Positions 304 through 15,295 of a stretch of 24,000 bases of DNA are shown piece by piece. The stretch spans positions 1 through 24,000 of the forward strand of contig CAZBPZ010000002.1 of NCBI GenBank assembly GCA_964493955.1, written 5' to 3'. Made by a program: the position numbers and the translations under genes. Source of the stretch: an uncultured Dehalococcoidales bacterium (GTDB lineage: Bacteria > Chloroflexota > Dehalococcoidia > Dehalococcoidales > Fen-1064). The notes under the pieces are model-generated. The model saw only the letters and a list, made by a program, of their open reading frames with translations, did not search any database and was not told the origin of the DNA. Every line of letters starts with the position of its first letter. The first letter of the stretch is position 1.

Positions 304-459
304 GCCGGGTAGAGAGAGGCTACCAACCTGCCTCGGGCGGGTGGTAAGCCCCGGCAAAGCGAGCATAGCGTTAGTCGCTTGGATCGGACACGACCGAGAC
401 GGCAGTGGTTGAAGGTCCAGAGTGCCCTCTCCGGTCGTGCCGGAGAGGGCAAATTTTTT
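304..459 (+). promoter_or_regulatory. candidate cis-regulatory 5' leader RNA (riboswitch/attenuator-like, ~155 nt) of the pan operon
   Basis: Spans the predicted TSS (~304) to the U-tract of the terminator (459). It has no ATG and no SD-led mini-ORF. Several mutually exclusive helices are possible: 304-309 GCCGGG with 350-355 CCCGGC, 357-362 AAGCGA with 375-380 TCGCTT, and 381-385 GGATC with 414-418 GGTCC. Segment 305-320 (CCGGgtAGAGagaGGC) is a gapped copy of the terminator 3' arm (440-450, CCGGAGAGGGC). Confidence 0.45.
424..459 (+). terminator. rho-independent terminator located inside the pan-operon leader
   Basis: GCCCTCTCCGG (424-434), loop tcgtg (435-439), CCGGAGAGGGC (440-450): 11 perfect base pairs followed by AAATTTTTT (451-459). 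It lies 18 nt upstream of the ATG at 477. The upstream neighbour is divergent, so no + strand gene ends here. Confidence 0.8.
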
Positions 460-476
460 CGGGCGAGGTGCCGGAC

Positions 477-1391
477 ATGAGTAGGCCGCAACCAAAGCTC
501 GGTTTCATCGGGGCCGGAACGGTGGGCTCTGCCCTGGCCATCAGGCTGGCGGAGCAGGGCTACCCGGTGGTGGCGGCTGCCAGCCGCAGGCCGGCCTCGG
601 CGGCCCGGCTGGCGGAAAGTGTGCCGGGCTGCCGGGCGGTCGGGAGCGCCCAGGCGGTGGCCGACAGGGCTGACCTGGTCTTCATTACCACCCCGGACGA
701 TGCCATTGCACCCGTTGCCAGCAGCGTGAGCTGGCACGAAGGCCAGGGCGTTGTCCACTGCAGCGGGGCTGACTCGGTTGATATTCTGGAGCCGGCCCGC
801 CGCCTCGGGGCACGGGTCGGGGGGTTCCACCCCCTGCAGACCTTTGCCAGCGTGGAGCAGGCCATCGCCAACATCCCCGGCTCCACCTTTGCCGTGGAGG
901 CGGAAGGGCCGCTGGCGGCCACGCTGGTCGGGATGGCGGAGGCCCTGGCAGGGCATGCCATCCGGCTGGAGGCCGGGGCCAAGGTCCTCTACCACGCCGC
1001 GGCGGTGGTGGCCTGTAATTACCTCGTCACGCTGGTGAAGCTGGCGACCGACCTCTGGCAGGTGTTCGGGGTGGAGCGTGATGAGGCTACGGCGGCCCTG
1101 CTGCCGCTGCTGCGTGGCACGCTGGCGAACATCGAGCGGGTGGGCATCCCTGGCTGCCTGACCGGCCCGATTGCCCGCGGTGATACCGGTACCATTCGCA
1201 AGCACCTCGAGGCGCTGCGGCACCGGGCGCCCGGCTTGTTCGCCGTCTACTGCGAGCTGGGAAGGCAGACTGTACCTGTTGCCGTTGCAAAGGGTAGAAT
1301 AGGGGAGCGCCAGGCGCGGGAGCTTCTGGCCCTGCTGGCGCCGGAGGCCGGTGGCGGCCTCCAGGAAATGCACGAGGAGGCAGATAAATGA
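477..1391 (+). CDS. Rossmann-fold oxidoreductase of the DUF2520 type; putative PanG-like ketopantoate reductase
   Basis: ORF 405..1391 trimmed to ATG 477 (GAGGTG at 465-470, 6-nt spacer). N-terminal GxGxxG (FIGAGTVGSALA). The C-terminal half carries motifs I associate with DUF2520 (HPLQTF, LYHAAAVVACNYLVTL, LTGPIARGD). It is the first gene of an operon with panD and panB, and its stop overlaps the next start (ATGA at 1388-1391). Confidence 0.8.
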   Translation: MSRPQPKLGFIGAGTVGSALAIRLAEQGYPVVAAASRRPASAARLAESVPGCRAVGSAQAVADRADLVFITTPDDAIAPVASSVSWHEGQGVVHCSGADSVDILEPARRLGARVGGFHPLQTFASVEQAIANIPGSTFAVEAEGPLAATLVGMAEALAGHAIRLEAGAKVLYHAAAVVACNYLVTLVKLATDLWQVFGVERDEATAALLPLLRGTLANIERVGIPGCLTGPIARGDTGTIRKHLEALRHRAPGLFAVYCELGRQTVPVAVAKGRIGERQARELLALLAPEAGGGLQEMHEEADK

Positions 1392-1828
1392 GACACCGTG
1401 CCATACTGGGCCTGGCTGCCCTGGCGATGACCGGGCTGCTCTTCGGCGGCTGCGCCGCCAGGCCCCCGGTGGATGACAACGTAAAACTGCAGGAGCTCGT
1501 TGCCGTCGGCCAGACCATTGACCAGGTCAAGGCGTTGATGACGCCCCATCTCCTGGCCCAGGCGGTCGTTTACCCGGCCAGCAACATCGTCAAGCAAGAG
1601 TCCGGTAACTGGGAGTTTACCGCCAAGTCGGGCGGTAAAGAGGGGGATACTGATGCCCCCTTCGTGGTTATCATTGTGGGTCCAAACCAGCCGGGCAAGG
1701 AGTACCTGGCGGTGCTGTTCGAGGACGGGGTCGTCTTCGGCACCGAGTGGTTTTCCTATTCCTATGCCCAGGTGCTGCACCTGCTGCTGACCGGCCAGAT
1801 GGAGGATGCCGTATCGCAGTCCCAGTGA
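1388..1828 (+). CDS. small predicted lipoprotein, function unknown
   Basis: 146-aa ORF. The N-terminus [22 protein letters not shown] has a positive n-region, a hydrophobic core and a lipobox-like FGGC. GC3-rich codon usage resembles the neighbours. It is translationally coupled to the upstream gene through the ATGA overlap. Confidence 0.65.
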
Positions 1829-1862
1829 TGCCAGGCACGACATCGTGGGGGTGAGGAAGTCC

Positions 1863-2234
1863 GTGCGCACCATGCTCAAGAGCAAGATACACCGCGCCAC
1901 CGTCACCGCGGCCAATCTCCACTATGAGGGGAGCATCACGATTGACCGTGAACTGATGCGGGCCGCCGATATCCTGCCCTTCGAGCAGGTGCAGGTGCTC
2001 GATATCAACAACGGCTCTCGCCTGACCACCTACGCCATCGAGGGCGGCCCGGGCGAGGTCTGCATCAACGGGGCAGCCGCCCGGCTGGTCTCGCCGGGAG
2101 ACCTTGTCATCATCCTTAGCTACTGCCACCTGCCCGAGGAGAAGCTCGCTTCGTACCGGCCCCGGCTGGTACTTGTCGATGAGAGGAACCGGGTAAAGCC
2201 CGGCTCACCCGCGGTAGAGACTGCTCCTGTCTAG
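1863..2234 (+). CDS. panD: aspartate 1-decarboxylase (pyruvoyl-dependent)
   Basis: (V/M)[27 protein letters not shown] matches the PanD N-terminus, including the Gly-Ser self-cleavage site (YEGS). I prefer GTG 1863 (GTGAGG at 1851-1856), giving MRTMLKSK. ATG 1872 is the alternative start. ORF-track entry: 1806..2234. Confidence 0.93.
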
Positions 2235-2240
2235 GAGGTC

Positions 2241-3077
2241 ATGATGCGCACCACTGTCATCCAGGTCCGGGAGATGAAGGAGAAGGGCGAGAAGATTACC
2301 ATGCTCACTGCCTATGACTACGCCACCGCCCGGATTATTGACCGGGTGGGTATCCCCCTGATACTGGTGGGCGATAGTCTGGGGATGGTGGTCCTCGGCT
2401 ACGAGTCCACCGTGCCGGTGACGCTCGAGGACATGCTGCACCACGCCCGGGCGGTGGTGCGTGGCACCGAGCAGGCCCTGGTGGTGGGTGACATGCCCTT
2501 CATGACCTACCACCTCAGCACCGAGCAGGCCCTGAAGAATGCGGCGCGTTTCATCCAGGAGGCCGGGACACAGGCCGTTAAACTGGAGGGCGGCGTGACC
2601 GTGGCCGACAAGGTGAAGCGCCTGGTGGAGTGCGGTATCCCGGTGATGGGGCACATTGGCCTGACACCCCAATCGGTGCATCAGCTCGGGGGGCACCGTG
2701 TCCAGGGGCGGAGCCCGGAGGCGGCCGTAAGGTTGCTGGAGGATGCCCTTGCCCTGGAAGCGGCCGGGGCGTTTGCCATTGTGCTGGAGAGCGTGCCGGC
2801 ACCGCTGGCAGCCCTTATCACCCGGAAGGTGAAGGTACCTACCATCGGCATCGGGGCCGGGCCGGACTGCGACGGCCAGGTACAGGTCATCAATGACCTG
2901 CTGGGGCTTTTCACTGACTTCGTGCCGCGCCACGCCAAGCAGTATGCCCGGCTGGCCGATGCCATGACATCGGCCATCACCCAGTACTACGAGGAAGTAA
3001 AAAGCGGCCGGTTCCCCACCAGGGAGCATAGCTTCTCCATGGACGAGAGCGTCCTGGCGGAGCTTGAGGCCCGCTAG
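2241..3077 (+). CDS. panB: 3-methyl-2-oxobutanoate hydroxymethyltransferase (ketopantoate hydroxymethyltransferase)
   Basis: 278-aa ORF with KITMLTAYDY, LVGDSLGMVVLGY, VVGDMPF, VKLEGG, GHIGLTPQS and IGIGAG, all typical of PanB. An AGGAGG overlaps the panD stop. The start is ATG 2241 or 2244. Confidence 0.95.
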   Translation: MMRTTVIQVREMKEKGEKITMLTAYDYATARIIDRVGIPLILVGDSLGMVVLGYESTVPVTLEDMLHHARAVVRGTEQALVVGDMPFMTYHLSTEQALKNAARFIQEAGTQAVKLEGGVTVADKVKRLVECGIPVMGHIGLTPQSVHQLGGHRVQGRSPEAAVRLLEDALALEAAGAFAIVLESVPAPLAALITRKVKVPTIGIGAGPDCDGQVQVINDLLGLFTDFVPRHAKQYARLADAMTSAITQYYEEVKSGRFPTREHSFSMDESVLAELEAR

Positions 3078-3540
3078 GAGCCGTGGCGGCTGGTAGGGTC
3101 AACAAGCATGTGGCCGATTCCAGGCTGGGTGATGATGTAACGGGGGTTGTGGGGGTCTTTCCAGCTTGCGCCGCAGGTGCAGGATGCAGGCCCGCCGGTA
3201 TTCGAATTCGTCCTGGTACTCGGCGCCCCGCACCCGCGTGAGCAGGTCACGGTGCAGCATGACGCGGCCCATGTTGCGCATCAGCTGGGCCAGCAGTTCG
3301 GGTATGCTGGAGGGCTTGGTGAAATAGTCGTCCGCCCCCAGCTTCAGGCCTTTCACCTTGTCGGCGTCCTTGCCCCGGGTGGTCAGCCTGATGATGGGGG
3401 GTGGTGGTGAACTGGCGGGTACGCTGGCAGAGTTCGTAGCCGTTTGGTTCGGGCAGCTCAACGCGTATCTCGTCCGGTGTCCGGGCCAGAGTACCCACCT
3501 CGTCGCGCCCCTGTGCCTTCACCCCTTGTAGGTGCCCCGG
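3074..3540 (-). pseudogene. decayed KdpE/OmpR-family response regulator (multiple frameshifts plus an internal deletion)
   Basis: Minus-strand pieces in three frames line up with KdpE-like regulators. ORF 3247..3597 contains PDEIRVELPEPNGYELCQRTRQF (receiver beta3/alpha3, with the phospho-acceptor position reading E). ORF 3099..3461 contains PIIRLTTRGKDADKVKGLKLGADDYFTKPSSIPELLAQL joined directly to MRNMGRVMLHRDLLTRVRGAEYQDEFEYRRACILHLRRKLE, so the linker and the first half of the winged helix are missing. A third frame gives PRYIITQPGIGHMLVD, ending at a TAG (3076-3074) that overlaps the panB stop. No intact N-terminal DD/E acidic pocket is recognisable. Confidence 0.6.
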
Positions 3541-3596
3541 GGTAGAGCGGGCAGGGCGTGGCCCGTGTGCTGGTGTAGTGGTGCCACGCCCCGGCA

Positions 3597-3625
3597 TACC
3601 AATGCCGGCGCGGCAGTGTTATAAT
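3597..3625 (+). promoter_or_regulatory. extended -10 promoter for the AmmeMemoRadiSam genes
   Basis: TGtTATAAT at 3617-3625 is an exact extended -10 consensus. The -35 is weak (TACCAA, 3597-3602, 17-nt spacer). Predicted TSS ~3632. GGGGAG (3646-3651) lies 6 nt before ATG 3658. Confidence 0.5.
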
Positions 3626-3657
3626 TTGACCGGAGAGCCCCCGCCGGGGAGCCAGCG

Positions 3658-4701
3658 ATGCGTGAAGCGCTGCTCTATGAGAAACGCCCCCGTGCCTTTG
3701 TCCGCTGCGGTACCTGCCAGTGGCGTTGCAGCATCGCCCCCGGCCGTACCGGGTTCTGCGGCATGTACCGCAACCTGGACGGGAAGCTCTTCAGCCTCGG
3801 CTATGCCCGGGTCTCCTCCATGGCGGCCGACCCGGTAGAAAAGAAGCCCCTCTTTCATTTCTACCCCGGCACCCTCTGTTTCTCGCTGGGGGGGTGGGGT
3901 TGCAATTTCCGGTGTCCCGGCTGCCAGAACTGGCAGATTTCGGCGGCGCGTGACGAGGAGTCCTGGCGTGGTAGCCGGCAGGTCGAGCCGGCGGCGGCGG
4001 TGGCGCTGGCGCAGCAGTATGGCTGCCGGGGGATATCCTGGACCTACAATGAGCCGTCCGTCTGGTTTGAATACACCCTGGAAGGCGCCCGTATTGCCCG
4101 CGAGCAAGGCCTCTATACTGTCTATGTCACCAACGGCTACCTCAGCCCGGAGGCGCTTGATACCATCGGGCCTTACCTGGATGCCTGGCGGGTGGATGTG
4201 AAGGGGTTTTCGGACGAGGTGTACCGGAGGCTTTGCGGGGTGGTACACTGGCGGGGCATACTGGAGGTGGCGGTACGTGCCCGCCGGCGCTGGGGCATGC
4301 ATGTTGAGGTGGTCACCAACATTACGCCGACGGTGAACGATGACGATGAGCAAATCCGGGCGATTGCGTCCTGGATACGTGACAGCCTGGGCGAGCTGAC
4401 ACCGTGGCACGTCACGCGTTTCTACCCCCAGTACCGGATGCAGGACCTGCCGGTCACCCCGGTGGAAACGCTGGAGCGGGCCTGGAAAATCGGGCGGGAG
4501 GCGGGGCTGAAGTTTGTCTACCTGGGTAATGTGCCGGGACACCATTCGGAGAGCACGCTCTGCTACTCGTGCGGGCGGCTGGTGGTGGCCCGGAGCGGCT
4601 ACCAGGCGGACGTGGTTGGCCTGGACGGCTCGCGCTGCGCTCACTGCGGGGCCGAGCTGAACTTCAGGCCGGCCACGGAAGGAGGCGGAGATGACGCTTA
4701 G
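3658..4701 (+). CDS. amrS: AmmeMemoRadiSam system radical SAM enzyme
   Basis: 347 aa. Radical SAM motif CNFRCPGC (CxxxCxxC). The family-typical N-terminus has CGTCQWRC...FCG and DPVEKKPLFHFYPG. There is a C-terminal CYSC...CAHC cysteine pair. It sits immediately upstream of, and overlaps by 11 nt, the Memo/AMMECR1 gene. Confidence 0.9.
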   Translation: MREALLYEKRPRAFVRCGTCQWRCSIAPGRTGFCGMYRNLDGKLFSLGYARVSSMAADPVEKKPLFHFYPGTLCFSLGGWGCNFRCPGCQNWQISAARDEESWRGSRQVEPAAAVALAQQYGCRGISWTYNEPSVWFEYTLEGARIAREQGLYTVYVTNGYLSPEALDTIGPYLDAWRVDVKGFSDEVYRRLCGVVHWRGILEVAVRARRRWGMHVEVVTNITPTVNDDDEQIRAIASWIRDSLGELTPWHVTRFYPQYRMQDLPVTPVETLERAWKIGREAGLKFVYLGNVPGHHSESTLCYSCGRLVVARSGYQADVVGLDGSRCAHCGAELNFRPATEGGGDDA

Positions 4702-6007
4702 AGAGCCGGCGGTGGCTGGTGCCTTCTACCCGGGGACAGCGGCCGCCCTGAGGGAGATGATATCCGGGCTGGTGGACGAGGCAGCCCCCCGGGTGGCGGC
4801 CATCGGGGCGCTGGTACCTCACGCCGGCTACGTCTATTCCGGGCGTGTGGCCGGGGCTACCATCTCGCGCCTCCGCTTCGGGGACAGCTTCGTCGTGATG
4901 GGGCCGAGTCACACCGGGCTGGGGGCACCCTTCAGCCTGATGGCGGCCGGCACCTGGCGCACGCCGCTGGGTGACGTGGAGATTGATACCGAGCTGGCGG
5001 CGGCCATACTGGAGCGCTCGGACGTGCTCCGGGACGATGACCTGGCCCACCTGCGCGAGCACGCCGTGGAGGTGCAGCTACCCTTCCTCCAGTACTTCAG
5101 GCCGGATGTCCGCATTGTACCGCTCGTGCTCTCGCACGCCGAGGTGCCAACCTACCGCCGGATTGCCAGCGCCCTGGTAGGTGCGATTGAGGCAACCGGG
5201 CGCAGCGTTACCCTGCTTGCCTCCGGTGATATGACCCACTACGAGCCGAGGGAAACAGCCGAGCGCAAGGACAGGCAGGGGATAGAGGCCATCCTGGCCC
5301 TGGATGACGAGGAGCTGCTGCGCCGGGTGCGTACCCTGGGTATATCAATGTGTGCCTACGGGCCGGCGGCGGTGCTGATTGCGGCGGCCCGGCAGGCAGG
5401 GGCTACCCGGGCGGAGCTGGTAGGCTATGCCACCAGTGGCGACGTTACCGGTGACTACTCGGCGGTGGTGGGCTATGCCGGTATCATCGTCAGGAAGCCG
5501 CCACAGACGGAGATTGCCCGCCTTGCCCGTGACGCGGTCGAGGCCTTTGTGCTGAGGGGTGAGCGCCTGCAGCCGGTGGTAACCTCGCCCGAGATGCAGG
5601 CCAGGGCCGGGGTGTTCGTCTCGCTGCACAAGAACGGTAGCCTGCGGGGGTGCATCGGCACGTTCGAGCCGCAGGAGGCCAGCGTGGCGGAAGAAATCGT
5701 GGCCAATGCTATCAGCTCGGCGACGCACGACCCCCGGTTCCTGCCCGTCCGGCCGGACGAGCTGGGTGCCCTGGAGTACAGCGTTGACGTGCTGACCCCC
5801 CCGGAGCCGGTGGACGGGCCAGAGGCACTGGACCCGAAGCGGTACGGGGTCATCGTGGAATCAGGCTGGCGGCGGGGCCTGCTGCTGCCGGACCTTGAAG
5901 GTGTCAACACCGTGAAGGAGCAGCTTGAGATCTGCCGCCAGAAGGCCGGAATAGGCCCGGACGAGCCGGTCAGGCTTTATCGCTTCGAGGTCAAGAGGTA
6001 CCGCTAG
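4691..6007 (+). CDS. amrB/amrA: fused AmmeMemoRadiSam system protein B (Memo-like) and protein A (AMMECR1-like)
   Basis: A single 438-aa ORF. Residues ~1-265 are Memo-like (PAVAGAFYPG, VPHAGYVYSG, GPSHTG, SGDMTHYE). Residues ~270-438 are AMMECR1-like (GVFVSLHKNGSLRGCIGTFEP, ATHDPRF, RGLLLPD). GGAGG at 4681-4685 lies 5 nt before ATG 4691. Confidence 0.9.
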   Translation: MTLREPAVAGAFYPGTAAALREMISGLVDEAAPRVAAIGALVPHAGYVYSGRVAGATISRLRFGDSFVVMGPSHTGLGAPFSLMAAGTWRTPLGDVEIDTELAAAILERSDVLRDDDLAHLREHAVEVQLPFLQYFRPDVRIVPLVLSHAEVPTYRRIASALVGAIEATGRSVTLLASGDMTHYEPRETAERKDRQGIEAILALDDEELLRRVRTLGISMCAYGPAAVLIAAARQAGATRAELVGYATSGDVTGDYSAVVGYAGIIVRKPPQTEIARLARDAVEAFVLRGERLQPVVTSPEMQARAGVFVSLHKNGSLRGCIGTFEPQEASVAEEIVANAISSATHDPRFLPVRPDELGALEYSVDVLTPPEPVDGPEALDPKRYGVIVESGWRRGLLLPDLEGVNTVKEQLEICRQKAGIGPDEPVRLYRFEVKRYR

Positions 6008-6032
6008 GGCCGGGCGGTCGGAGGAGGAGAAG

Positions 6033-6602
6033 ATGCTGAGAGACCTGGTGCTGAAGAACCGGAGCTACCGCCGGTTCTATGAGGCAGAACCCGTGGCGGA
6101 GGAGACGCTGCGCCAGCTGGTGGACCTGGCGCGCTACGTGGCCTCCGGGGCCAACCGCCAGCCGCTCAAGTACCGCCTGGTCTGGACGCCCGGGGAGCGA
6201 GCCCGGGTCTTTGCTACGCTGTCATGGGCGGGGGCTCTGCCCGACTGGCCGGGGCCGGCCGAGGGCGAGCGGCCCTCGGCCTACATAATAGTCCTGGGCG
6301 ATACCACTATCAGTAAGTCCTTCGGGGTGGACCACGGGATTGCCGCCCAGACAATCCTGCTGGGGGCCACCGAGCTTGGCCTGGGGGGCTGCATGATTGC
6401 CTCGGTGGAGAGGGACGACCTGCGGCGACAGCTTGAAATCCCGCCCCACCTGGAAGTCCTGCTCGTCCTGGCCCTGGGCTGGCCGAAGGAGAAGGTGGTG
6501 CTGGAAGAGCTGCCCCCCGGTGGTGACCACCGCTACTGGCGGGATGCTGACGGTGTGCACCACGTGCCGAAACGACGGCTGGAGGATATAATTGTCAGCT
6601 AG
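6033..6602 (+). CDS. nitroreductase-family flavoprotein
   Basis: 189 aa. N-terminal NRSYRRF, then ASGANRQP, and the length and layout of the ~190-aa nitroreductase subgroup. GGAGGAGGAG lies upstream of ATG 6033. Confidence 0.85.
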   Translation: MLRDLVLKNRSYRRFYEAEPVAEETLRQLVDLARYVASGANRQPLKYRLVWTPGERARVFATLSWAGALPDWPGPAEGERPSAYIIVLGDTTISKSFGVDHGIAAQTILLGATELGLGGCMIASVERDDLRRQLEIPPHLEVLLVLALGWPKEKVVLEELPPGGDHRYWRDADGVHHVPKRRLEDIIVS

Positions 6603-6614
6603 CGGGGCGGGGCG

Positions 6615-8048
6615 ATGAGAAATGTCTCCAAGAATGTCTTCCTGAGTGCCCTTAACTGCCCGACGTTAGGCTGGCTGGCACGCAATGACGGCCGCCGGGT
6701 ACCGTCACTGGCCGAGAGGTTCCGCCTGGAGCAGGGGCTTGAGGTGGGGCGTCGTGCCCGGGCACTCTTTCCCGGGGGGCGGCTCATCTCGCCCGTGCAG
6801 CCGCAGGCGGCGGCGCGGTGGACGGACGAAGCGCTGGCTGCCCCTTCGCCTCCGGCTATCTTTGAGGCTGCCTTCATTGCCGGTGGCTACGTGGCCCGGC
6901 CGGATATCATCTACCGCCGCCCTGACGGCTGGCACATGGTGGAGGTCAAGTCCGGCCTGAGCGGCAAGGACGGCCACCTGGACGACATGGCCTACACCGC
7001 CATGGTGGCCCGCGCCGGCGGCACGGAGTTTACCGGGCTGGAGCTGGTGCTGGTGTCACGCGATTACCGCCTCGGTATGCCGGATGAAGAGCTTTTTGTC
7101 CGGATTGACCATACCGACGAGGTGCTGGCCCGTCTGCCGGAGTTCGAGCAGCTCCGGGAGGAAGTTGACGAAATAACCCGGCAGCCGGAGATGCCGGCGC
7201 CGCAGGTACGCTACGCCTGCCGGAGCTGTGACATCTCGGCGGAGTGCCTGAAAGACAGGGCACGCCACCATGTCATTGAGCTGCCGCGGTTGACACCGGC
7301 CCGCTTCCGGAGCCTGGAGGCCCTCGGCATAAGCCGGATAGAGGAGATACCGGACAGCTTCCCGCTGACGCAGTACCAGCGGATGGTGAGGGACTGTGTG
7401 CGCCGCGGCCGGCCCTACATCGGGCCAACGCTCCGTGAAGACCTGGCGGCGGTGGAGTGGCCGGCCCGCTACCTGGACTTTGAGACGGTGATGACGGCCA
7501 TCCCGCTCTATCCCGAGGTGGCCCCTTACGAGCCGGTGGTGACGCAGTACTCGCTGCACACCTGTTCCGCCCCCGGGGTGCTGGTTGACCACCGCCAGTA
7601 TCTGGCCGAGCCCTGGCGCGACTGCCGGCGCGAGCTGGCGGAAAACCTCCTGCGGGACCTGGGAGACCGCGGGAGCATAATTGTCTATTCCCGGTTCGAG
7701 GGTGACATTGTGCGCGGGCTGATGCGGCGCTTCCCTGACCTGGCCGGCCGGCTGGCCGGGGTGGTGGCGCGCCTGGTGGACCTCGAGGCTATCATCAGGC
7801 GGGGCTACTACCACCCGGACTTCCGCGGCAGCACCTCCATCAAGCGTACCCTGCCGGCACTGGTGCCGGACATGTCCTACGAGGGCCTGGCAATCGGGGA
7901 CGGGGGAACAGCCGCGGCCGCCTTTGCCTACATGGCCTGGGGCAGGCTGGCCGACCCGGCCCGGACGCGGCGCCAGCTGCTGGAGTACTGCCGGCAGGAC
8001 ACCCTGGCGATGGTGAAGCTCCACCAGCACCTGCTGGAGCAGGTGTAG
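6615..8048 (+). CDS. DUF2779-type protein: N-terminal Cas4-like PD-(D/E)xK nuclease plus C-terminal DEDDy-like exonuclease domain
   Basis: 477 aa. N-terminal SKNVFLSALNCP..LGW; PD-(D/E)xK-like ARPDII...WHMVEVKS; cysteine pattern C15...C-x2-C-x5-C (YACRSCDISAEC), as in Cas4/AddB iron-sulfur nucleases; HhH-like LTPARFRSLEALGISRIEEIP. The C-terminal half has YLDFET, IIVYSRFEGD and YCRQDTLAMVKL (Y-x3-D). Confidence 0.8.
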   Translation: MRNVSKNVFLSALNCPTLGWLARNDGRRVPSLAERFRLEQGLEVGRRARALFPGGRLISPVQPQAAARWTDEALAAPSPPAIFEAAFIAGGYVARPDIIYRRPDGWHMVEVKSGLSGKDGHLDDMAYTAMVARAGGTEFTGLELVLVSRDYRLGMPDEELFVRIDHTDEVLARLPEFEQLREEVDEITRQPEMPAPQVRYACRSCDISAECLKDRARHHVIELPRLTPARFRSLEALGISRIEEIPDSFPLTQYQRMVRDCVRRGRPYIGPTLREDLAAVEWPARYLDFETVMTAIPLYPEVAPYEPVVTQYSLHTCSAPGVLVDHRQYLAEPWRDCRRELAENLLRDLGDRGSIIVYSRFEGDIVRGLMRRFPDLAGRLAGVVARLVDLEAIIRRGYYHPDFRGSTSIKRTLPALVPDMSYEGLAIGDGGTAAAAFAYMAWGRLADPARTRRQLLEYCRQDTLAMVKLHQHLLEQV

Positions 8049-8073
8049 GCCGGGGCGGCACCTGGAGAAGAGG

Positions 8074-10068
8074 ATGGACCTGTTCGAGCAGCGGCACGAG
8101 AAGCAGCGCCGGATGGAGGCCCCTCTGGCCGCCCGCATGCGGCCGGACAGCTTTCATACTTACGTTGGCCAGGAGCACATCATCGGCAAGGGGCACGTGT
8201 TGCGCGAGGCTATCGAGTCGGGCCAGCTCCCCTCCATCATTCTCTGGGGGCCGCCCGGCAGCGGCAAGACCACCCTGGCCAACGTCATTGCCAACCAGAC
8301 CGATTCACACTTCGTCGCCGTCAGCGCCGTGACGGCCGGCGTGGCCGACCTGCGCCGTATCATCGAGGAGGCCAGGGAGCGCCGCAAGCTCTACCAGCGG
8401 CGCACCATCCTGATGATTGATGAGATACACCGCTTCAACAAGGCGCAGCAGGACGCCGTGCTGCCCTACGTTGTAGACGGCACAGTTACCCTCATCGGCG
8501 CCACCACCGAGAACCCTTCCTTTGAAGTGAATGCCCCCCTCCTCTCCCGCTGCAAGGTCTTCGTCCTCAAGCCGCTCAACGAGCAGGAGCTGCGCATTAT
8601 CCTGCTGCGGGCCATCAAGGACCCTATCAACGGCCTCGGCCAGATGGACATCGAGATTGACGAGGAGGCGATGCTCCACATCATCATGTCGGCCGAGCAC
8701 GATGCCAGGGTGGCCCTCAACACGCTGGAACTGGCGGCGATGACCACCCCGCCCCGGCCCGACGGCACGCGTCACATCACCCTGCCGATTGTGGAGGACG
8801 CCGTGCAGCAGCGGGCGCTGCGCTATGACAAGGCGGGGGAGCAGCATTACGACCTCATCTCCGCCCTGCACAAGTCAATGCGCGATTCAGACCCGGACGC
8901 GGCGCTCTACTGGCTGGGGCGGATGCTGGAGGCGGGCGAGGGGCCGCTCTACATCGCGCGCCGCATCGTGCGCTTTGCCACCGAGGACATCGGCCTGGCC
9001 GACCCCCAGGCACTGGTGGTGGCCATGGCTGCCCAGCAGGCCGTTCACTTCATCGGCCTGCCGGAAGGCAACCTGGCCCTGGCCGAGGCAGTGGTCTACA
9101 TGGCCACTGCCCCCAAGAGCAACTCGCTCTACCGGGCGTACTCGGCGGTGCAGGCCGAAATCCGCGAGGGCTCGAATGACCCCGTGCCCCTTCACCTGCG
9201 TAACCCGGTTACGCCCCTCATGCAGCGGCTTGGTTACGGCCGGGGCTACAAGTATGCCCATGACTACCCGGAGCACTTCGTGGTGCAGCAGCACCTGCCG
9301 GACTCGCTGGTGGGTAGAAAGTTCTACACCCCCGGCGACCAGGGCTACGAGAAGCAGGTGGCGGCCCGGCTGAAGAAACTGCGCCCCTCCGGGCCGGGGC
9401 CGACCCGAAAGGAGCGTGCCGCCGTGGCTGAGAAACGCGTTCGGTTCCCCTGCGGGGACATTACCCTGGAAGGGGCCTGGCACTGGCCGCCCGGCGAGCC
9501 CCCCTTCGCGGCGGTGGTGGTCTGCCACCCCCACTCGCTCTACGGTGGCAGCATGCACAACGTGGTGGTGCTGGCCCTCTGCGAGGCAATCTGTGCCCGC
9601 GGCCTGGCGGCCTTCCGCTTCAACTTCCGCGGCGTGGGCGGCAGCGGCGGTGAGTTCGGCGGCGGTACGGCCGAGCGGCAGGACGTGGCGGCCGCCCTTG
9701 GCTTCGTCAGCGCCGATGAGGGGGTTGATGCGGCACGCCTCGGGCTGGCCGGCTATTCCTTCGGGGGCGGGGTGGCGCTGCCGGTGGCCCTTGAGGACGA
9801 GCGGGTGCAGCGGCTGGCCCTGGTCTCGCCGGCGCTGTCCGAGGCAGGCTGGGCCCAGCTGGAGCGCTTCTCACGGCCCAAGCTGGTGGTGGTGGGCGGG
9901 GCTGATTCGGTGATACGTCTGGAACGGTTCCAGCAGCTGGCCGAGGCGGCCCGCAACCCGGACGAGTACCGCAGCCTGGTGGGGGCGGACCACTTCTGGC
10001 TGGGGCGCGAGGACGAGCTGGCCGCGCTGGTGGCCGACTTCTTCGCCACCGGTCTGGGGCGGTCCTGA
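8074..10068 (+). CDS. rarA: replication-associated recombination protein A (RarA/MgsA) fused in frame to an alpha/beta-fold hydrolase domain
   Basis: 664-aa uninterrupted ORF. Residues 1-~436 are RarA: Walker A GPPGSGKTT, Walker B ILMIDEIHRF, GATTENPSF, ISALHKSMRDSDPDAALYWL, and the typical C-terminal end FYTPGDQGYEKQVAARLKKLR. Residues ~451-664 form a compact hydrolase (VVCHPHSLYGGSMHN, FRFNFRGVGGSGG, nucleophile elbow GYSFGG, GGADSV, GADHFW). AAGGAG (9409-9414) and an in-frame GTG (9424) sit at the junction. Confidence 0.85.
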   Translation: MDLFEQRHEKQRRMEAPLAARMRPDSFHTYVGQEHIIGKGHVLREAIESGQLPSIILWGPPGSGKTTLANVIANQTDSHFVAVSAVTAGVADLRRIIEEARERRKLYQRRTILMIDEIHRFNKAQQDAVLPYVVDGTVTLIGATTENPSFEVNAPLLSRCKVFVLKPLNEQELRIILLRAIKDPINGLGQMDIEIDEEAMLHIIMSAEHDARVALNTLELAAMTTPPRPDGTRHITLPIVEDAVQQRALRYDKAGEQHYDLISALHKSMRDSDPDAALYWLGRMLEAGEGPLYIARRIVRFATEDIGLADPQALVVAMAAQQAVHFIGLPEGNLALAEAVVYMATAPKSNSLYRAYSAVQAEIREGSNDPVPLHLRNPVTPLMQRLGYGRGYKYAHDYPEHFVVQQHLPDSLVGRKFYTPGDQGYEKQVAARLKKLRPSGPGPTRKERAAVAEKRVRFPCGDITLEGAWHWPPGEPPFAAVVVCHPHSLYGGSMHNVVVLALCEAICARGLAAFRFNFRGVGGSGGEFGGGTAERQDVAAALGFVSADEGVDAARLGLAGYSFGGGVALPVALEDERVQRLALVSPALSEAGWAQLERFSRPKLVVVGGADSVIRLERFQQLAEAARNPDEYRSLVGADHFWLGREDELAALVADFFATGLGRS

Positions 10069-10120
10069 CCCGGCCCGAGTGGCCTGGCCGCCCCGCAAGG
10101 CTTTACCTGTGAGGTGAGGC

Positions 10121-12463
10121 GTGGCGCTTGACTTTGAAAGGCTCCGGAAGGTGGGCCTGCCCAAGACGCACGGGCGCATCCGGGCCGATGGGCTGGAAGA
10201 ATCGGTCTCCGTGGTGCGTGACCGCTACGGCTGCCCCCATATTAGCGCCCGCACCGAGCACGATATCTGGTTTGCCCAGGGTTTCTGCCATGCCCAGGAC
10301 AGGCTCTGGCAGCTTGAGCGGACGCGGCGCTTCGCCCGCGGTACCCTGGCCGAAATCCTCGGCGAGCCGCTGGTGCCGGTTGACCGTTACTACCGCCGCC
10401 TCGGTATCCAGCGGGTCTCGGTGCGGGACTGGGACCAGCTCAACGACGAGGCGCGCCTCATCCTCCAGGCCTTCAGCGACGGTGTCAACGCCGCCATCGC
10501 CTCGATGAAGCAGCTACCCCCCGAGTTCAGAGTGCTGGAGCTGGTACCGGAGCCGTGGACGCCCACCGATAGCATTGCCCTCTGGAAGGTCATCTTCCTC
10601 ACCCAGACGGCGGACTTCAACCTCAAGCTCTTCCGGGCGGCCCTGGCGCGTGAGCTGGGGCCGGAGACGGCGCGCCTCCTGGAGCCGGAGTACCCGGCGC
10701 CGGCACCGGTGGTCTGGCCGCCGGGGACGCTGGCTGGTGGCCTGGGCGAAGAGATTTCGCGCCTGAGCGCACTGGCCAGCCGGTATGCGCCGGTCTCGGC
10801 TGAGGGCGGCTCCAACAACTGGGCGGTAAGCGGCCGCTTGAGCGCTTCGGGGAAGCCGCTGCTGGCGGGTGACCCCCACGCTGTCATCCAGATAGCACCG
10901 GTGTGGTACCTGAACCACCTGCGCACCCCGGAGTGGGAGATGACCGGTGTCAGCACGCCCGGTGTACCCGGCATTCTCCTCTACGGCCACAATGGTCACG
11001 TCGGCTGGACGGTGACGAATGCCATGGCAGATATTGCGGACCTGTTCGTCGAAAGGCTCGATGAGACCGGCCGCCGTTACTTCTACCGCGGCCGCTGGGT
11101 CGATTGCGAGGTCCGCCGCGAGGAGATACGGGTCAGGGGGAAGGTGGAGCCGGTGGTGGAGGAGATACCCGTCACCGTGCACGGGCCGCTGGTGAGTGGC
11201 GGGCCACTGGGGCCGGGCGTGCCGCTGGCCTGGCAGTGGACGGGCCACCGGGTCGTTACCACCTTCGAGTGTATCCCCGGCATGGCGCGGGCACGCAACG
11301 TGGACGAGTTCCGCCAGTCGCAGCGCAACTGGGCCGGCCCCCCGATGAACCGGATTACGGCCGATAGTTCCGGTAACATTGCCTACCAGCTGCTGGGCGA
11401 TGTGCCGATGCGGCGTCACGGCGGCCCCAACCCCGTCCCCGTGCCCGGCTGGACGGGTGAGTGTGACTGGGTGGGCATGGTCCCCTTTGAAGACTTGCCC
11501 TGGGCGAAGAACCCGCCGCGGGGCTTCATCGTCAGCGCCAATAACCGGGTGGCGCCGGCCGACTTCCCCTACCACGTCAACGACATGGTGGTGCCCTACC
11601 GGGCCTGGCGTATTGAAGAGCTGCTGGCGGGGCGCACCGGCCTCACGCCGGAGGACATGAAGGCGGTCCAGGGGGACCGCTTCTCCCGGCCGGCAGCGGC
11701 CTTTGCCAGGCTTCTTCTCGGCCTGCCGCCGCACGAGGGTATCGCCCGTGCCCGGCGGTTGCTGCGTGGCTGGGACGGCGTGCTTGCCCCGGAATCACCC
11801 GCCGCCGCCCTCTACGAGGTCTTCCTCCAGAAGCTATACGCCCGGCTCTTCGCCTTTGCCCGGGACCTGCCGGGGGCACCGCTGGCGCTGGACCGCTGGC
11901 TGACCTGCTACCTGCCGCGCCTCATTTTGCAGATAGAGGCGGGCGACACCGCCCTGCTGGCCCTGAACGAGAGCACGCGGGGAAAGTCATGGCCGGAGGT
12001 GTTGACGGCGGCGCTGGCCGAGGCCAGCGCCTGGCTGGCGGAGCACCAGGGGGCCGACCCGGCCGGCTGGTCGTGGGGGAAGCTGCACCGCCAGACCTTC
12101 GTCCACAACCTGGGGCGGACTCCCCCGTACGACGCACTCTTCAACCTGCCACCGGTGGAAATCGGCGGCGACGCCTCGACCGTCTTCAACGCCGGGGCCG
12201 CCTACTTCCGTGACTTCGAGGTGCGGGTGGGTGTTTCCTTCCGCATGGTGCTGGACTTTGCCAACCTGAATAGTGCCGTCTGGGTGCTGCCGCCGGGCCA
12301 GTCCGGCCACCCCGGCAGCTCCCATTATCGCGATGGTATCGCGCCGTGGCTCAGCCTGCAGTACTGGCCGATGCTCTGGGACTGGCAGCGCATCAGGGAA
12401 GAGGCGGCAGGTACCCTCTGGCTGCTGCCGGTGCGGCACGAAGAAGCACCAGGCGGGGACTAG
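10121..12463 (+). CDS. penicillin-acylase-family Ntn hydrolase (acylase/amidase), no signal peptide evident
   Basis: 780 aa with a GTG start preceded by GAGGTGAGG. RDRYGCPHI, GFCHAQDRLWQLE and the self-processing/nucleophile site GGSNNWAVSG are family hallmarks. The N-terminus MALDFERLRKVGLPKTHGRI has no hydrophobic signal segment. Confidence 0.85.
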   Translation: MALDFERLRKVGLPKTHGRIRADGLEESVSVVRDRYGCPHISARTEHDIWFAQGFCHAQDRLWQLERTRRFARGTLAEILGEPLVPVDRYYRRLGIQRVSVRDWDQLNDEARLILQAFSDGVNAAIASMKQLPPEFRVLELVPEPWTPTDSIALWKVIFLTQTADFNLKLFRAALARELGPETARLLEPEYPAPAPVVWPPGTLAGGLGEEISRLSALASRYAPVSAEGGSNNWAVSGRLSASGKPLLAGDPHAVIQIAPVWYLNHLRTPEWEMTGVSTPGVPGILLYGHNGHVGWTVTNAMADIADLFVERLDETGRRYFYRGRWVDCEVRREEIRVRGKVEPVVEEIPVTVHGPLVSGGPLGPGVPLAWQWTGHRVVTTFECIPGMARARNVDEFRQSQRNWAGPPMNRITADSSGNIAYQLLGDVPMRRHGGPNPVPVPGWTGECDWVGMVPFEDLPWAKNPPRGFIVSANNRVAPADFPYHVNDMVVPYRAWRIEELLAGRTGLTPEDMKAVQGDRFSRPAAAFARLLLGLPPHEGIARARRLLRGWDGVLAPESPAAALYEVFLQKLYARLFAFARDLPGAPLALDRWLTCYLPRLILQIEAGDTALLALNESTRGKSWPEVLTAALAEASAWLAEHQGADPAGWSWGKLHRQTFVHNLGRTPPYDALFNLPPVEIGGDASTVFNAGAAYFRDFEVRVGVSFRMVLDFANLNSAVWVLPPGQSGHPGSSHYRDGIAPWLSLQYWPMLWDWQRIREEAAGTLWLLPVRHEEAPGGD

Positions 12464-13064: not shown

Positions 13065-15278
13065 TCAGCTCAGCTTTTCCAGGCGGGCGAAGCTCGCCAG
13101 CAGTTTTTTCACGCCCTGGCCGGCAAAGGCCACCGTTACCTCGCGGTCATCCCTGGCCGCTTTGCAGGAGATAACCACGCCGTTACCGAAGTGGCTGTGC
13201 CGGACGCGGTCGCCGGGCCTCAGCTCGGGGACAGGAGCGGGTGGTGGGGCGTCCGCTCCGCCCCCGGTTACCTCTGTCGGGTAGGTGCGGCTGTTCCAGG
13301 TGGCTATGACCTCGGAGGCGTGGCGGCCGGCGGCATCCGGCCAGCCGGGGGAGGCAATGAGGTGGCGGGGGATGTCTTCCAGGAAGCGGGAGGGCGGGTT
13401 GACGGTCCGGCTGCCCATCAGGGTGCGCCGGAATGCCCGTACCAGGTAAAGGTACTTCTTGGCGCGGGTGATACCCACGTAGAAGAGGCGGCGCTCCTCT
13501 TCCATCTGGGCGGGGTTATCAAAGGAGCGGGAGTGGGGTAGTAGCCGCTCCTCGGTGCCGACGATAAAGACCACCGGGAACTCCAGCCCCTTGGCCTGGT
13601 GCAGGGTAATCAGGGTGACTCGGTTGTCCCCCTCGGCCAGGCTGTCGGTATCGCTCACCAGCGCCACGTTCTCCAGGAACTCCGCCAGCCCCGCCGCCGG
13701 CCCGCGGTCGGCGTACTGCTGGGCCACACCGCGCAACTCCTGCACGTTCTCCCAGCGCTCTTCACCCTGGCGGTCCTCCAGCACGTAATGCCGGTAGCCG
13801 GTACTCTCCACCACCAGGTCAAACAGGGTGGGCAGGTCAAGCACGCGGCTGCCGGTGATGAGGCCATCCATCAACCGGTAGAAAGAGGTCAGCACCTGGG
13901 CGCTGCGGGGTGTGAGGTGATGCTCCAGCGCACCACCCGGCGGCGGCTCGGCCAGGAGCTGCAGTGCTTCCCAGAGGGAAACGCCCAGTGAGCGTGCCCA
14001 CTCGCTCAGTCTGGCTACCGTCTGCTGGCCGATGCCCCGCCCCGGTACGTTGATGATGCGCAGCAGGCTAACGCTGTCCTGCGGGTTGTGGATGAGGCGC
14101 AGGTAGGCTACCAGGTCCTTGACCTCGCGGCGCTCGTAGAAGCGGGTGCCGTTGGCCAGCCGGTAGGGCAGGCCGTAGCGCAGGAAGGCCTCTTCAATCA
14201 CCCGCGACTGGGCATTGGTGCGGAACATGACGGCGCATTCGTCCAGCCGGACCTGGCCGGAATCAACCAGCCGCTCGATTTCGCTGACGACGAACTGGGC
14301 CTCTTCCTGCTCGGTGTAGACCTCGACGACCTGCACCGGTTCACCCGGCTCGTTCTCCGTCCACAGCTCCTTGGGCTTGCGCTGCACGTTGGACGAGATG
14401 ACGCTGGTGGCGACATCCAGTATCTTCTGGGTGGAGCGGTAGTTCTGCTCCAGCAGTACCACCCGGGCGTCGGGGTAGTCTTTCTCGAAGCTGAGGATGT
14501 TGCGCAGGTCGGCCGAGCGCCAGGAGTAGATGGACTGGTCCGGGTCACCCACCACGCAGATGTTGCGGTGGCGGCCGGCCAGCAGCTTGATGAGTTCGTA
14601 CTGGACGAGGTTGGTGTCCTGGAACTCGTCTACCAGTACGTGGAGGTAGCGCGACTGGTAGCGTGAAAGCACCCTCTTATCGCGGTGAAGAAGGTGGACG
14701 GTGCGCATCAGGAGGTCGTCAAAGTCAAGCGCCTTGCTCTCTTCGAGCAGGCGCTGGTAGCGCTCGTAGACGCGTACCACTATTTCGTCGAAGTAGCTGT
14801 CACGGTGGGTGTATTCGGCCGGCCCTTCGAGGCGGCTCTTGGCGGCGGAGATGGCCCCCAGGAGCGCCGCCGGGGCATACTGGGCGGGGTCAATCTGGAG
14901 CTCCTGCATGGCCCGTTTCACCAGCCTTGTCTGGTCGTCGGCGTCGTATATGACGTAGTGCGGGTCAATGCCGATTGACCGGCCGTCGCGCCGCAGGAAA
15001 CGCGCGCAGATGGCATGGAAGGTGCCCATCGTCAGCTCGTCCACCGAGCCGCCGACGAGCTGGCGCACCCGCTCCTGCATCTCGCTGGCGGCCTTGTTGG
15101 TGAAGGTGACCGCCATGATGCGGCGCGGGCTGATACCGCAGACGGTGACGAGGTAGGCGATGCGGTGGGTGATGACGCGGGTCTTGCCGCTGCCCGGCCC
15201 CGCCAGGATGAGGACCGGACCCCTGATTGCCTCAACGGCTTCCTTCTGGGCAGGATTCAGGCCGGTCAGTACATCCAT
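13065..15278 (-). CDS. pcrA: ATP-dependent DNA helicase PcrA/UvrD (superfamily 1A)
   Basis: 737 aa. LNPAQKEAV, Walker A AGPGSGKTRV, VDEFQDTN, VGDPDQSIYSWR, LEQNYRST, TLHQAKGLEF, YVGITRA, and a C-terminal Tudor-like tail (GDRVRHSHFGNGVV). Confidence 0.93.
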   Translation of the reverse strand: MDVLTGLNPAQKEAVEAIRGPVLILAGPGSGKTRVITHRIAYLVTVCGISPRRIMAVTFTNKAASEMQERVRQLVGGSVDELTMGTFHAICARFLRRDGRSIGIDPHYVIYDADDQTRLVKRAMQELQIDPAQYAPAALLGAISAAKSRLEGPAEYTHRDSYFDEIVVRVYERYQRLLEESKALDFDDLLMRTVHLLHRDKRVLSRYQSRYLHVLVDEFQDTNLVQYELIKLLAGRHRNICVVGDPDQSIYSWRSADLRNILSFEKDYPDARVVLLEQNYRSTQKILDVATSVISSNVQRKPKELWTENEPGEPVQVVEVYTEQEEAQFVVSEIERLVDSGQVRLDECAVMFRTNAQSRVIEEAFLRYGLPYRLANGTRFYERREVKDLVAYLRLIHNPQDSVSLLRIINVPGRGIGQQTVARLSEWARSLGVSLWEALQLLAEPPPGGALEHHLTPRSAQVLTSFYRLMDGLITGSRVLDLPTLFDLVVESTGYRHYVLEDRQGEERWENVQELRGVAQQYADRGPAAGLAEFLENVALVSDTDSLAEGDNRVTLITLHQAKGLEFPVVFIVGTEERLLPHSRSFDNPAQMEEERRLFYVGITRAKKYLYLVRAFRRTLMGSRTVNPPSRFLEDIPRHLIASPGWPDAAGRHASEVIATWNSRTYPTEVTGGGADAPPPAPVPELRPGDRVRHSHFGNGVVISCKAARDDREVTVAFAGQGVKKLLASFARLEKLS

Positions 15279-15286
15279 CAGGGTTG

Positions 15287-15295
15287 ATTATAGCA
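15287..15295 (-). promoter_or_regulatory. extended -10 promoter placing the pcrA start codon at or next to the TSS
   Basis: Minus strand TGcTATAAT (15295-15287). Only 8 nt (caaccctg) separate the hexamer from ATG 15278, and there is no SD. This implies a 0-2 nt leader. Confidence 0.45.

Follow-up and report, generated by a model that had tools for sequence, protein, structure and literature searches.

The AmmeMemoRadiSam system is a named, widespread and functionally unsolved prokaryotic system, the components of which are recognized by the NCBIfam models TIGR04335 (protein A, the AMMECR1 homologue), TIGR04336 (protein B, the Memo homologue) and TIGR04337 (the radical S-adenosylmethionine, or SAM, enzyme). 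The closest described relatives of these components are human MEMO1 for Memo, the archaeal proteins PH0010, MM0484 and ST0229 for AMMECR1, and the pyruvate formate-lyase activating enzyme (PFL-AE) together with other activases of glycyl-radical enzymes for the radical SAM protein. MEMO1 has links to disease and mutations in AMMECR1 lead to a human developmental disorder; to our knowledge, eukaryotes retain both MEMO1 and AMMECR1 without a radical SAM partner. Here, we describe a locus of this system at positions 3597–6007 of a 24,000-nucleotide (nt) stretch (hereinafter the window), i.e., positions 1 to 24,000 of the forward strand of contig CAZBPZ010000002.1 from an uncultured Dehalococcoidales bacterium (Fen-1064; assembly GCA_964493955.1). 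Two adjacent, co-oriented and translationally coupled genes code, respectively, for the radical SAM enzyme (3658..4701, + strand; 347 amino acids, aa) and for a single Memo–AMMECR1 polypeptide (4691..6007, + strand; 438 aa), with the products scoring above the curated cutoffs of all three NCBIfam models. While the three-gene form of the system has separate A and B proteins, here the two are joined in the order protein B–protein A (B–A), a variant that is itself common and annotated. We consider it virtually certain that the locus is a chromosomal, cytoplasmic AmmeMemoRadiSam operon of a Dehalococcoidia-type Chloroflexota with high guanine-cytosine (GC) content, in the two-gene form standard for that lineage; as such, it is a routine member of the system.

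The product of the first open reading frame (ORF) matches TIGR04337 with 291.5 bits (cutoff 220) over residues 14–335 and the Pfam Radical_SAM domain (PF04055) with an E-value of 7e-19 (69 bits). The SAM-cluster motif CX3CX2C takes the form CNFRCPGC at residues 82–89 (nt 3901–3924), with the cysteines at C82, C86 and C89, and is invariant in all 19 aligned sequences. In this alignment, the enzyme displays altogether 11 invariant cysteines in a 4+3+4 pattern, which is kept even in sequences from two other lineages with just 36–39% identity: the central motif is flanked by an N-terminal Cx2Cx3Cx9C (C17, C20, C24 and C34) and a C-terminal Cx2C...Cx2C (C302, C305, C327 and C330). Reductive cleavage of SAM would be expected of a protein with this radical SAM motif. 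Its nearest solved structure by sequence is PFL-AE (PDB 3c8f, 3e-6), and its nearest by fold the PFL-AE–peptide complex (3cb8; E 7.6e-12, TM-score (TMt) 0.72), in a comparison that used an AlphaFold2 (AF2) model with a predicted local distance difference test score (pLDDT) of only 70.7 and a poor region at residues 1–105. The fold classes that follow, namely NifB, viperin and lipoyl synthase, trail it by four to five orders of magnitude. The CX3CX2C core and the partial-barrel fold are common to this enzyme and the activases of glycyl-radical enzymes; however, it falls far under the cutoffs of the activase models, reaching 36–37 bits against 174–430 for TIGR02494, TIGR02493 and relatives, and about 20–37 bits against 131–500 over every such model, possesses the additional N- and C-terminal cysteine clusters, and has no glycyl-radical enzyme nearby, none being found among the annotated ORFs of the window.

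The fusion protein lacks a signal peptide, its sequence opening with the Memo core itself. Its Memo domain (residues 4–267; 4700..5491, + strand) spans profile positions 1–270 of the 270 in TIGR04336 with 307.6 bits (cutoff 26) and matches Pfam Memo (PF01875) at 1.3e-71 (241.5 bits). The AMMECR1 domain (residues 275–437; 5513..6001, + strand), in which the string GSLRGCIGTFEP is found, spans positions 3–175 of the 175 in TIGR04335 with 137.6 bits (cutoff 99) and matches Pfam AMMECR1 (PF01871) over residues 277–436 at 5.7e-48 (163 bits). Residue conservation was assessed from an alignment of 53 fusions with 32–68% identity to the query. The Memo half shows no variation at H44, H74, E123, H124, D180 and H183 and retains C221 in at least 90% of the sequences, while the invariant residues of the AMMECR1 half are L318, R319, G320, C321, G323, D347, R349, F350, E357 and K418. 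A profile of the fusion alignment covers human MEMO1 over its full length (5e-52), and the PHAGY, GPSH, SxDxxH (SSDFCH in MEMO1) and xCG (ICG in MEMO1) motifs match between the two; H44, H74, D180, H183 and C221 align with these motifs, which we take to be the holders of the MEMO1 metal ligands (His/His/Asp/His/Cys). The titles of the PDB entries for iron-bound MEMO1, copper-bound MEMO1 and a C244S "metal binding site mutant" are consistent with this assignment. Based on the conserved MEMO1-type ligand residues, the Memo half is predicted to bind a metal.

Structural comparisons with Foldseek concur with the domain assignments. The Memo half has the same fold as human MEMO1 (3bcz, the iron-bound 7kq8 and the copper-bound 7l5c) with a TMt of 0.78–0.80 and conserved metal-ligand motifs, but MEMO1 is only about 20% identical, is a stand-alone eukaryotic protein not fused to AMMECR1 and lacks a radical SAM partner. 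The AMMECR1 half recovers 1zq7 and 1vaj at about 1e-21 by sequence, and the corresponding proteins MM0484 and PH0010 at about 1e-54 by profile; it has the same fold as PH0010 (1vaj), MM0484 (1zq7) and ST0229 (1wsc), with a TMt of 0.53–0.73 across the three, of 0.63–0.73 for 1vaj and 1zq7, and highest for 1vaj (0.73), and has the LRGCIG and DPRF motifs in common with them. These archaeal proteins are stand-alone versions of about 200 aa, as against a domain of about 165 aa placed C-terminal to Memo in the window. No solved structure spanning both halves was recovered by Foldseek. The AF2 model of the fusion has a mean pLDDT of 96.0 and a predicted TM-score (pTM) of 0.85, with a junction of about 8 residues that contains no disordered segment; the model indicates that the fusion protein is a single compact body with two domains in a fixed arrangement. 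The Memo half also has the superfamily fold of the LigB-type extradiol dioxygenases, such as 2-aminophenol 1,6-dioxygenase (3vsg/7txy) and LigAB (1bou), at E-values of 1e-8 to 1e-11, but with much lower TM-scores (0.5–0.6). The LigB model (PF02900) has no match at E<=1e-3 in the window protein, and no aromatic-catabolic genes are present among its neighbours in the window. O2-dependent ring cleavage by the Memo half is implausible in this anaerobe lineage.

The two frames overlap by 11 nt, with the ATG of the fusion gene at 4691 and the TAG of the radical SAM gene at 4699–4701. The ribosome-binding site of the fusion gene, AGGAGG (4680..4685, + strand), falls within the 3′-terminal part of the radical SAM gene, 5 nt before the ATG at 4691, and direct reading of the sequence places a Shine–Dalgarno-like GGGGAG (3646..3651, + strand) 6 nt before the radical SAM ATG at 3658. 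Further upstream, 32 nt before this ATG, we predict an extended -10 box, TGTTATAAT (3617..3625, + strand), with its TATAAT at 3620–3625. A generic sigma-70 scan of 3600–3657 listed no promoter, having passed over TGTTATAAT because it has no -35 match; hence, in place of that scan the promoter was evaluated by pattern search and comparison with relatives. The pattern TGNTATAAT has two matches in the window against an expectation of 0.05, and in 15 of the 16 related loci checked a TGnTA(N3)T box precedes the start of the orthologous radical SAM gene by 24–42 nt. Since the box is both rare in the window and kept in relatives, the proposal that the pair has its own promoter has comparative support, as a predicted -10 box. 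A perfect palindrome at the expected -35 position, CCGGCAT-N4-ATGCCGG (3591–3608, + strand), was rejected as a promoter-related element: its fold does not exceed that of shuffled sequences (z = -1.08) and it is missing in relatives. The long minus-strand ORFs of the region, e.g., 3619..4644 (- strand), are shadow frames of a sequence with 66% GC. Separately, the other TGNTATAAT match of the window, TGCTATAAT (15287–15295, - strand), ends 8 nt before the ATG of the gene for PcrA/UvrD (13065..15278, - strand), a position that suggests a leaderless or near-leaderless transcript for that gene.

These observations bear out most of what a first-pass annotation, made by reading the sequence, had claimed for the locus: a radical SAM gene with CNFRCPGC and extra cysteine clusters that overlaps by 11 nt a single 438-aa ORF, a Memo-like domain followed by an AMMECR1-like one in that ORF, and an extended -10 promoter for the pair. 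Its suggestion that the models for A, B and the radical SAM enzyme be run yielded scores above the curated cutoff in each case, with both halves of the ORF placed in their families, and the stop or frameshift between the halves that it had named as grounds for abandoning the fusion is absent from the window, with all of the homologues examined having the same continuous architecture.

In a search of 5.8 billion proteins, the fusion had 7545 matches at E<=1e-10, of which the best 120 were examined. All of these are fusions of 435–464 aa that contain both Pfam domains, with a query coverage of 99–100%, and those with 100% coverage are 59–68% identical to the query. Many of them are labelled [quoted passage not shown] by JGI, while NCBI labels them "protein B". 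Thus, the two-gene form is neither rare nor newly recognized, being already named in public annotation. A scan of one genome per GTDB species provided 143 confirmed relatives, of which 80 were kept, nearly all from Dehalococcoidia, Dehalococcoidales or Chloroflexota, with fusions 48–66% identical to that of the window. A radical SAM orthologue is encoded directly upstream in all 75 loci that have upstream DNA. The spacing comprises 47 overlaps of 1–86 nt (mostly 4, 8 or 11), 25 gaps of 0–30 nt and three gaps of 37–85 nt, such that in 72 of the 75 the frames either overlap or lie no more than 30 nt apart. Orthologous loci from Dehalococcoidia and other Chloroflexota, e.g., those on CP070842.1 (L001) and DUEV01000004.1 (L003), have the same two-gene layout, length and promoter box, with fusions 56–68% and radical SAM enzymes 62–76% identical to those of the window. 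They differ in their flanks, the window having an inverted panB block, a decayed response-regulator gene upstream and a GC content of about 66%.

Beyond this lineage, a HMMER search of 1.84 billion representatives of clusters at 50% identity retrieved 18211 matches at E<=1e-3, of which 2930 remain at E<=1e-30. The best 150 representatives comprise 82 fusions in the Memo–AMMECR1 order, three in the AMMECR1–Memo (A–B) order, 64 stand-alone Memo proteins and one protein with a match confined to the AMMECR1 domain. The A–B fusions include one protein each from Halobacteriales and Pirellulales, and in the Pirellulales locus the radical SAM gene overlaps the A–B fusion gene by 7 nt. The occurrence of both orders implies that fusion arose at least twice. 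Judging by the loci compared, a radical SAM gene followed by a B–A fusion gene is the norm in Dehalococcoidia, and this layout is common elsewhere as well. The first-pass annotation was therefore right in that the fusion is real and wrong in implying that it is rare, an option ruled out by the 82 B–A and three A–B fusions among the best 150 representatives. Its Rosetta-stone argument, namely that the fusion points to the two proteins acting as a unit, is valid and even strengthened, because independent fusions occur in the opposite order in other phyla, although it is not new.

Most B–A fusions of about 480–580 aa from outside Dehalococcoidia (P0134–P0211) have N-termini with Sec signals, lipoprotein signals (lipobox) or membrane anchors. 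Four loci coding for such fusions have both upstream and downstream flanks; no radical SAM gene was found in the flanks of three of these (L084, L087 and L088, the last on a contig of just 3 kb), while the fourth, L082, has one. In L082 and L083, which belong to one metagenomic lineage with 69% GC, positions 5001–11162 contain an operon coding for the B–A fusion, a DUF362 protein, a TIGR04337-like radical SAM protein and a SpeE-like membrane protein. Both its radical SAM protein (MRFTRRDALKLGIGAVLGAGALGAA...) and its DUF362 protein (GLTRREVLRAAAAGG...) have twin-arginine-type signals, and the N-terminus of the fusion is hydrophobic and includes an RR pair (MGSRRPLVIV...). Export of a radical SAM enzyme, as these signals predict, would be very unusual. 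One protein of 861 aa, P0270, was considered as a triple fusion that includes the radical SAM domain; this was rejected, as its N-terminal 400 aa are a multi-pass membrane domain that has a weak match to PMT_2 (E 0.008) and does not resemble the radical SAM protein. P0270 instead joins that membrane domain to Memo–AMMECR1. Further, 17 related loci (e.g., L038 3678–4886) have a gene for a PMT/GT-C-like membrane glycosyltransferase of about 400 aa immediately before the radical SAM gene and in the same orientation; it is missing from the window. A link of P0270 and the PMT/GT-C gene to polyprenyl-phosphate chemistry is possible.

The window is ordinary chromosomal DNA, and scans of it with Rfam and for tRNAs found nothing. 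Downstream of the pair follow a nitroreductase-family flavoprotein gene (6033..6602, + strand; PF00881 4.5e-20; PDB 2r01, an uncharacterised protein, 7.6e-53) after 25 nt, a gene for a DUF2779/RecB-like protein (6615..8048, + strand) after a further 12 nt, and, after another 25 nt, one for a 664-aa protein (8074..10068, + strand) in which a RarA/MgsA AAA+ module is fused to a C-terminal alpha/beta-hydrolase (Hydrolase_4/DLH at residues 476–642). The RarA–hydrolase protein is matched over its full length only in the closest relatives (L001, L008 and L010), with the other loci matching only the RarA part of about 440 aa. More distant downstream genes code for a penicillin-amidase-like protein, PcrA/UvrD, PlsY, a TldD/PmbA pair and AlaS. 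Since the gaps after the fusion gene are short and no promoter-like or terminator-like site was found in them on the + strand, nor any TGNTATAAT match between the fusion and nitroreductase genes, the nitroreductase, DUF2779 and rarA genes may be co-transcribed with the pair.

On the upstream side lie the genes for a DUF2520/Rossmann oxidoreductase and panB. In the window, this block (405–3077) and the radical SAM gene share one strand, whereas in the closest relatives (L001, L003, L004, L008 and L010) the block is on the opposite strand. Between panB and the radical SAM promoter is a decayed gene for an OmpR-type response regulator (3099–3600, - strand), of which the C-terminus of the receiver and a truncated winged-helix domain are recognizable, with a frameshift near 3400 and no N-terminus. 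The strand switch of the block points to a local inversion beside this remnant.

As to what the pair does, the literature searched (AmmeMemoRadiSam, AMMECR1 and MEMO1) included no functional study of the prokaryotic system, in keeping with the first-pass statement that its function is still unresolved. The key comparative paper on Memo contexts is Burroughs et al. 2019 (J Biol Chem 294:10211), to which PMC7159879 refers. We posit an outline in which the radical SAM enzyme would bind SAM on a [4Fe-4S] cluster held by C82, C86 and C89, with electrons probably arriving via one or both of the extra four-cysteine sites. Reductive cleavage of SAM would then generate a 5′-deoxyadenosyl radical that removes a hydrogen atom from a substrate. 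This substrate would be held by the Memo–AMMECR1 unit, which would bind and process it by means of the mononuclear His/His/Asp/His/Cys metal site of Memo (Fe or Cu in MEMO1) and the LRGCIG cleft of AMMECR1. In a strictly anaerobic lineage the chemistry would be O2-independent, with the oxidizing power coming from the radical SAM step, whereas relatives that have no such partner could draw it from O2. A B–A unit that serves as the catalytic or binding core, to which the radical SAM enzyme adds radical initiation, fits the eukaryotic proteins, which have no radical SAM partner, and the exported bacterial B–A fusions with no radical SAM gene nearby. Several points weigh against this outline: the radical SAM model cannot be relied on over residues 1–105, due to which the roles assigned to the extra cysteine sites are guesses; the highest-ranking characterised relatives of the enzyme are all protein-directed activases; no further gene is conserved around the pair in the related loci that would hint at a substrate; and biochemical data for any member of the system are absent from the literature searched. 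We give about even odds to this outline, with the B–A unit holding the substrate, when it is set against the alternative that the fusion itself is the target of the radical SAM enzyme.

The latter takes its most explicit form as a PFL-AE-like maturase that installs a protein radical or a modification on Memo–AMMECR1, e.g., at the glycine or cysteine of LRGCIG. That the best-scoring characterised relatives by both sequence and fold are activases of glycyl-radical enzymes speaks for it, as do the strict pairing of each radical SAM gene with one adjacent, translationally coupled fusion gene, the absence of another conserved partner, and the invariant R-G-C-x-G motif in the AMMECR1 cleft. Yet the same enzyme remains far under the cutoffs of every activase family, LRGCIG appears unlike RVxG[FWY], the motif of glycyl-radical enzymes, the eukaryotic B–A units, as far as we know, function with no radical SAM partner, and exported bacterial B–A fusions have no radical SAM gene next to them. 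On balance, we regard it as possible, if somewhat unlikely. More specifically, a radical or a cysteine- or glycine-derived modification might form in the LRGCIG cleft beside the Memo metal site, with the fusion as the substrate; this we consider unlikely, but if the fusion were so modified it would represent a new class of radical-activated metalloenzyme with a fold unrelated to the glycyl-radical enzymes, and would offer the first biochemical handle on MEMO1 and AMMECR1. The two genes could also be coincidental neighbours, with the radical SAM enzyme activating an unrelated glycyl-radical enzyme and the fusion protein acting independently; in favour of this, some annotation pipelines call the orthologues "pyruvate formate lyase activating enzyme". 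We deem this highly improbable given that the AmmeMemoRadiSam-specific model is passed while every activase model fails, that the genes are neighbours in all 75 loci, with frames that overlap in most of them, and are paired again in Pirellulales, and that no annotated ORF of the window codes for a glycyl-radical enzyme. That the fusion itself is an assembly or sequencing artefact joining two genes is barely conceivable and can be set aside: the frame is continuous, the model is confident across the junction, and the same architecture is seen in all of the best 120 matches, which come from many independent assemblies, and in the 80 species genomes.

A different alternative widens the system to a larger pathway, in which the radical SAM, B–A, nitroreductase-family and DUF2779/RecB-like genes form a four-gene unit, possibly with RarA, that acts on a heterocyclic or aromatic compound or a nucleic-acid base. 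Beyond the short gaps in the window, this draws on the presence of a nitroreductase orthologue downstream of the fusion gene in 16 of the 80 related loci, at 23–53 nt in L008, L010, L038 and L042, and of rarA 0.1–5 kb downstream in 51 loci by tblastn (42 by ORF clustering). Moreover, the abstract of the Burroughs et al. comparison is reported to cover contexts in which Memo occurs together with AMMECR1 and a radical SAM domain, and to propose links to nucleotide-base and isoprenoid modification. However, the nitroreductase gene is missing from most other loci, the gene right after the fusion gene varies among the relatives with the radical SAM–fusion pair alone being constant, loci of other phyla have different neighbours, and a conserved order within one bacterial order can be plain inherited synteny. 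We therefore find the larger pathway distinctly doubtful and membership of the nitroreductase in the AmmeMemoRadiSam system uncertain; going by the gene neighbourhoods, the recurrence of the rarA and nitroreductase genes is read as inherited synteny with a variable insertion spot, the nitroreductase and GT-C genes being patchy in their occurrence.

The first-pass annotation had further presented the locus as a compact and tractable version for working out the chemistry. This did not hold up, as thousands of equivalents are public and the locus has no particular advantage over them; some of these come from lineages easier to handle than uncultured Dehalococcoidia. What the window contributes is a clean example, with promoter, ribosome-binding sites, domain limits and invariant residues in place, rather than a new lead. 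As far as gene order and fusion can tell, it confirms that Memo and AMMECR1 would function as a single physical unit to which a radical SAM enzyme is coupled, a conclusion already derivable from thousands of public sequences. The prokaryotic radical SAM-linked system is a natural place in which to look for the chemistry of MEMO1 and AMMECR1.

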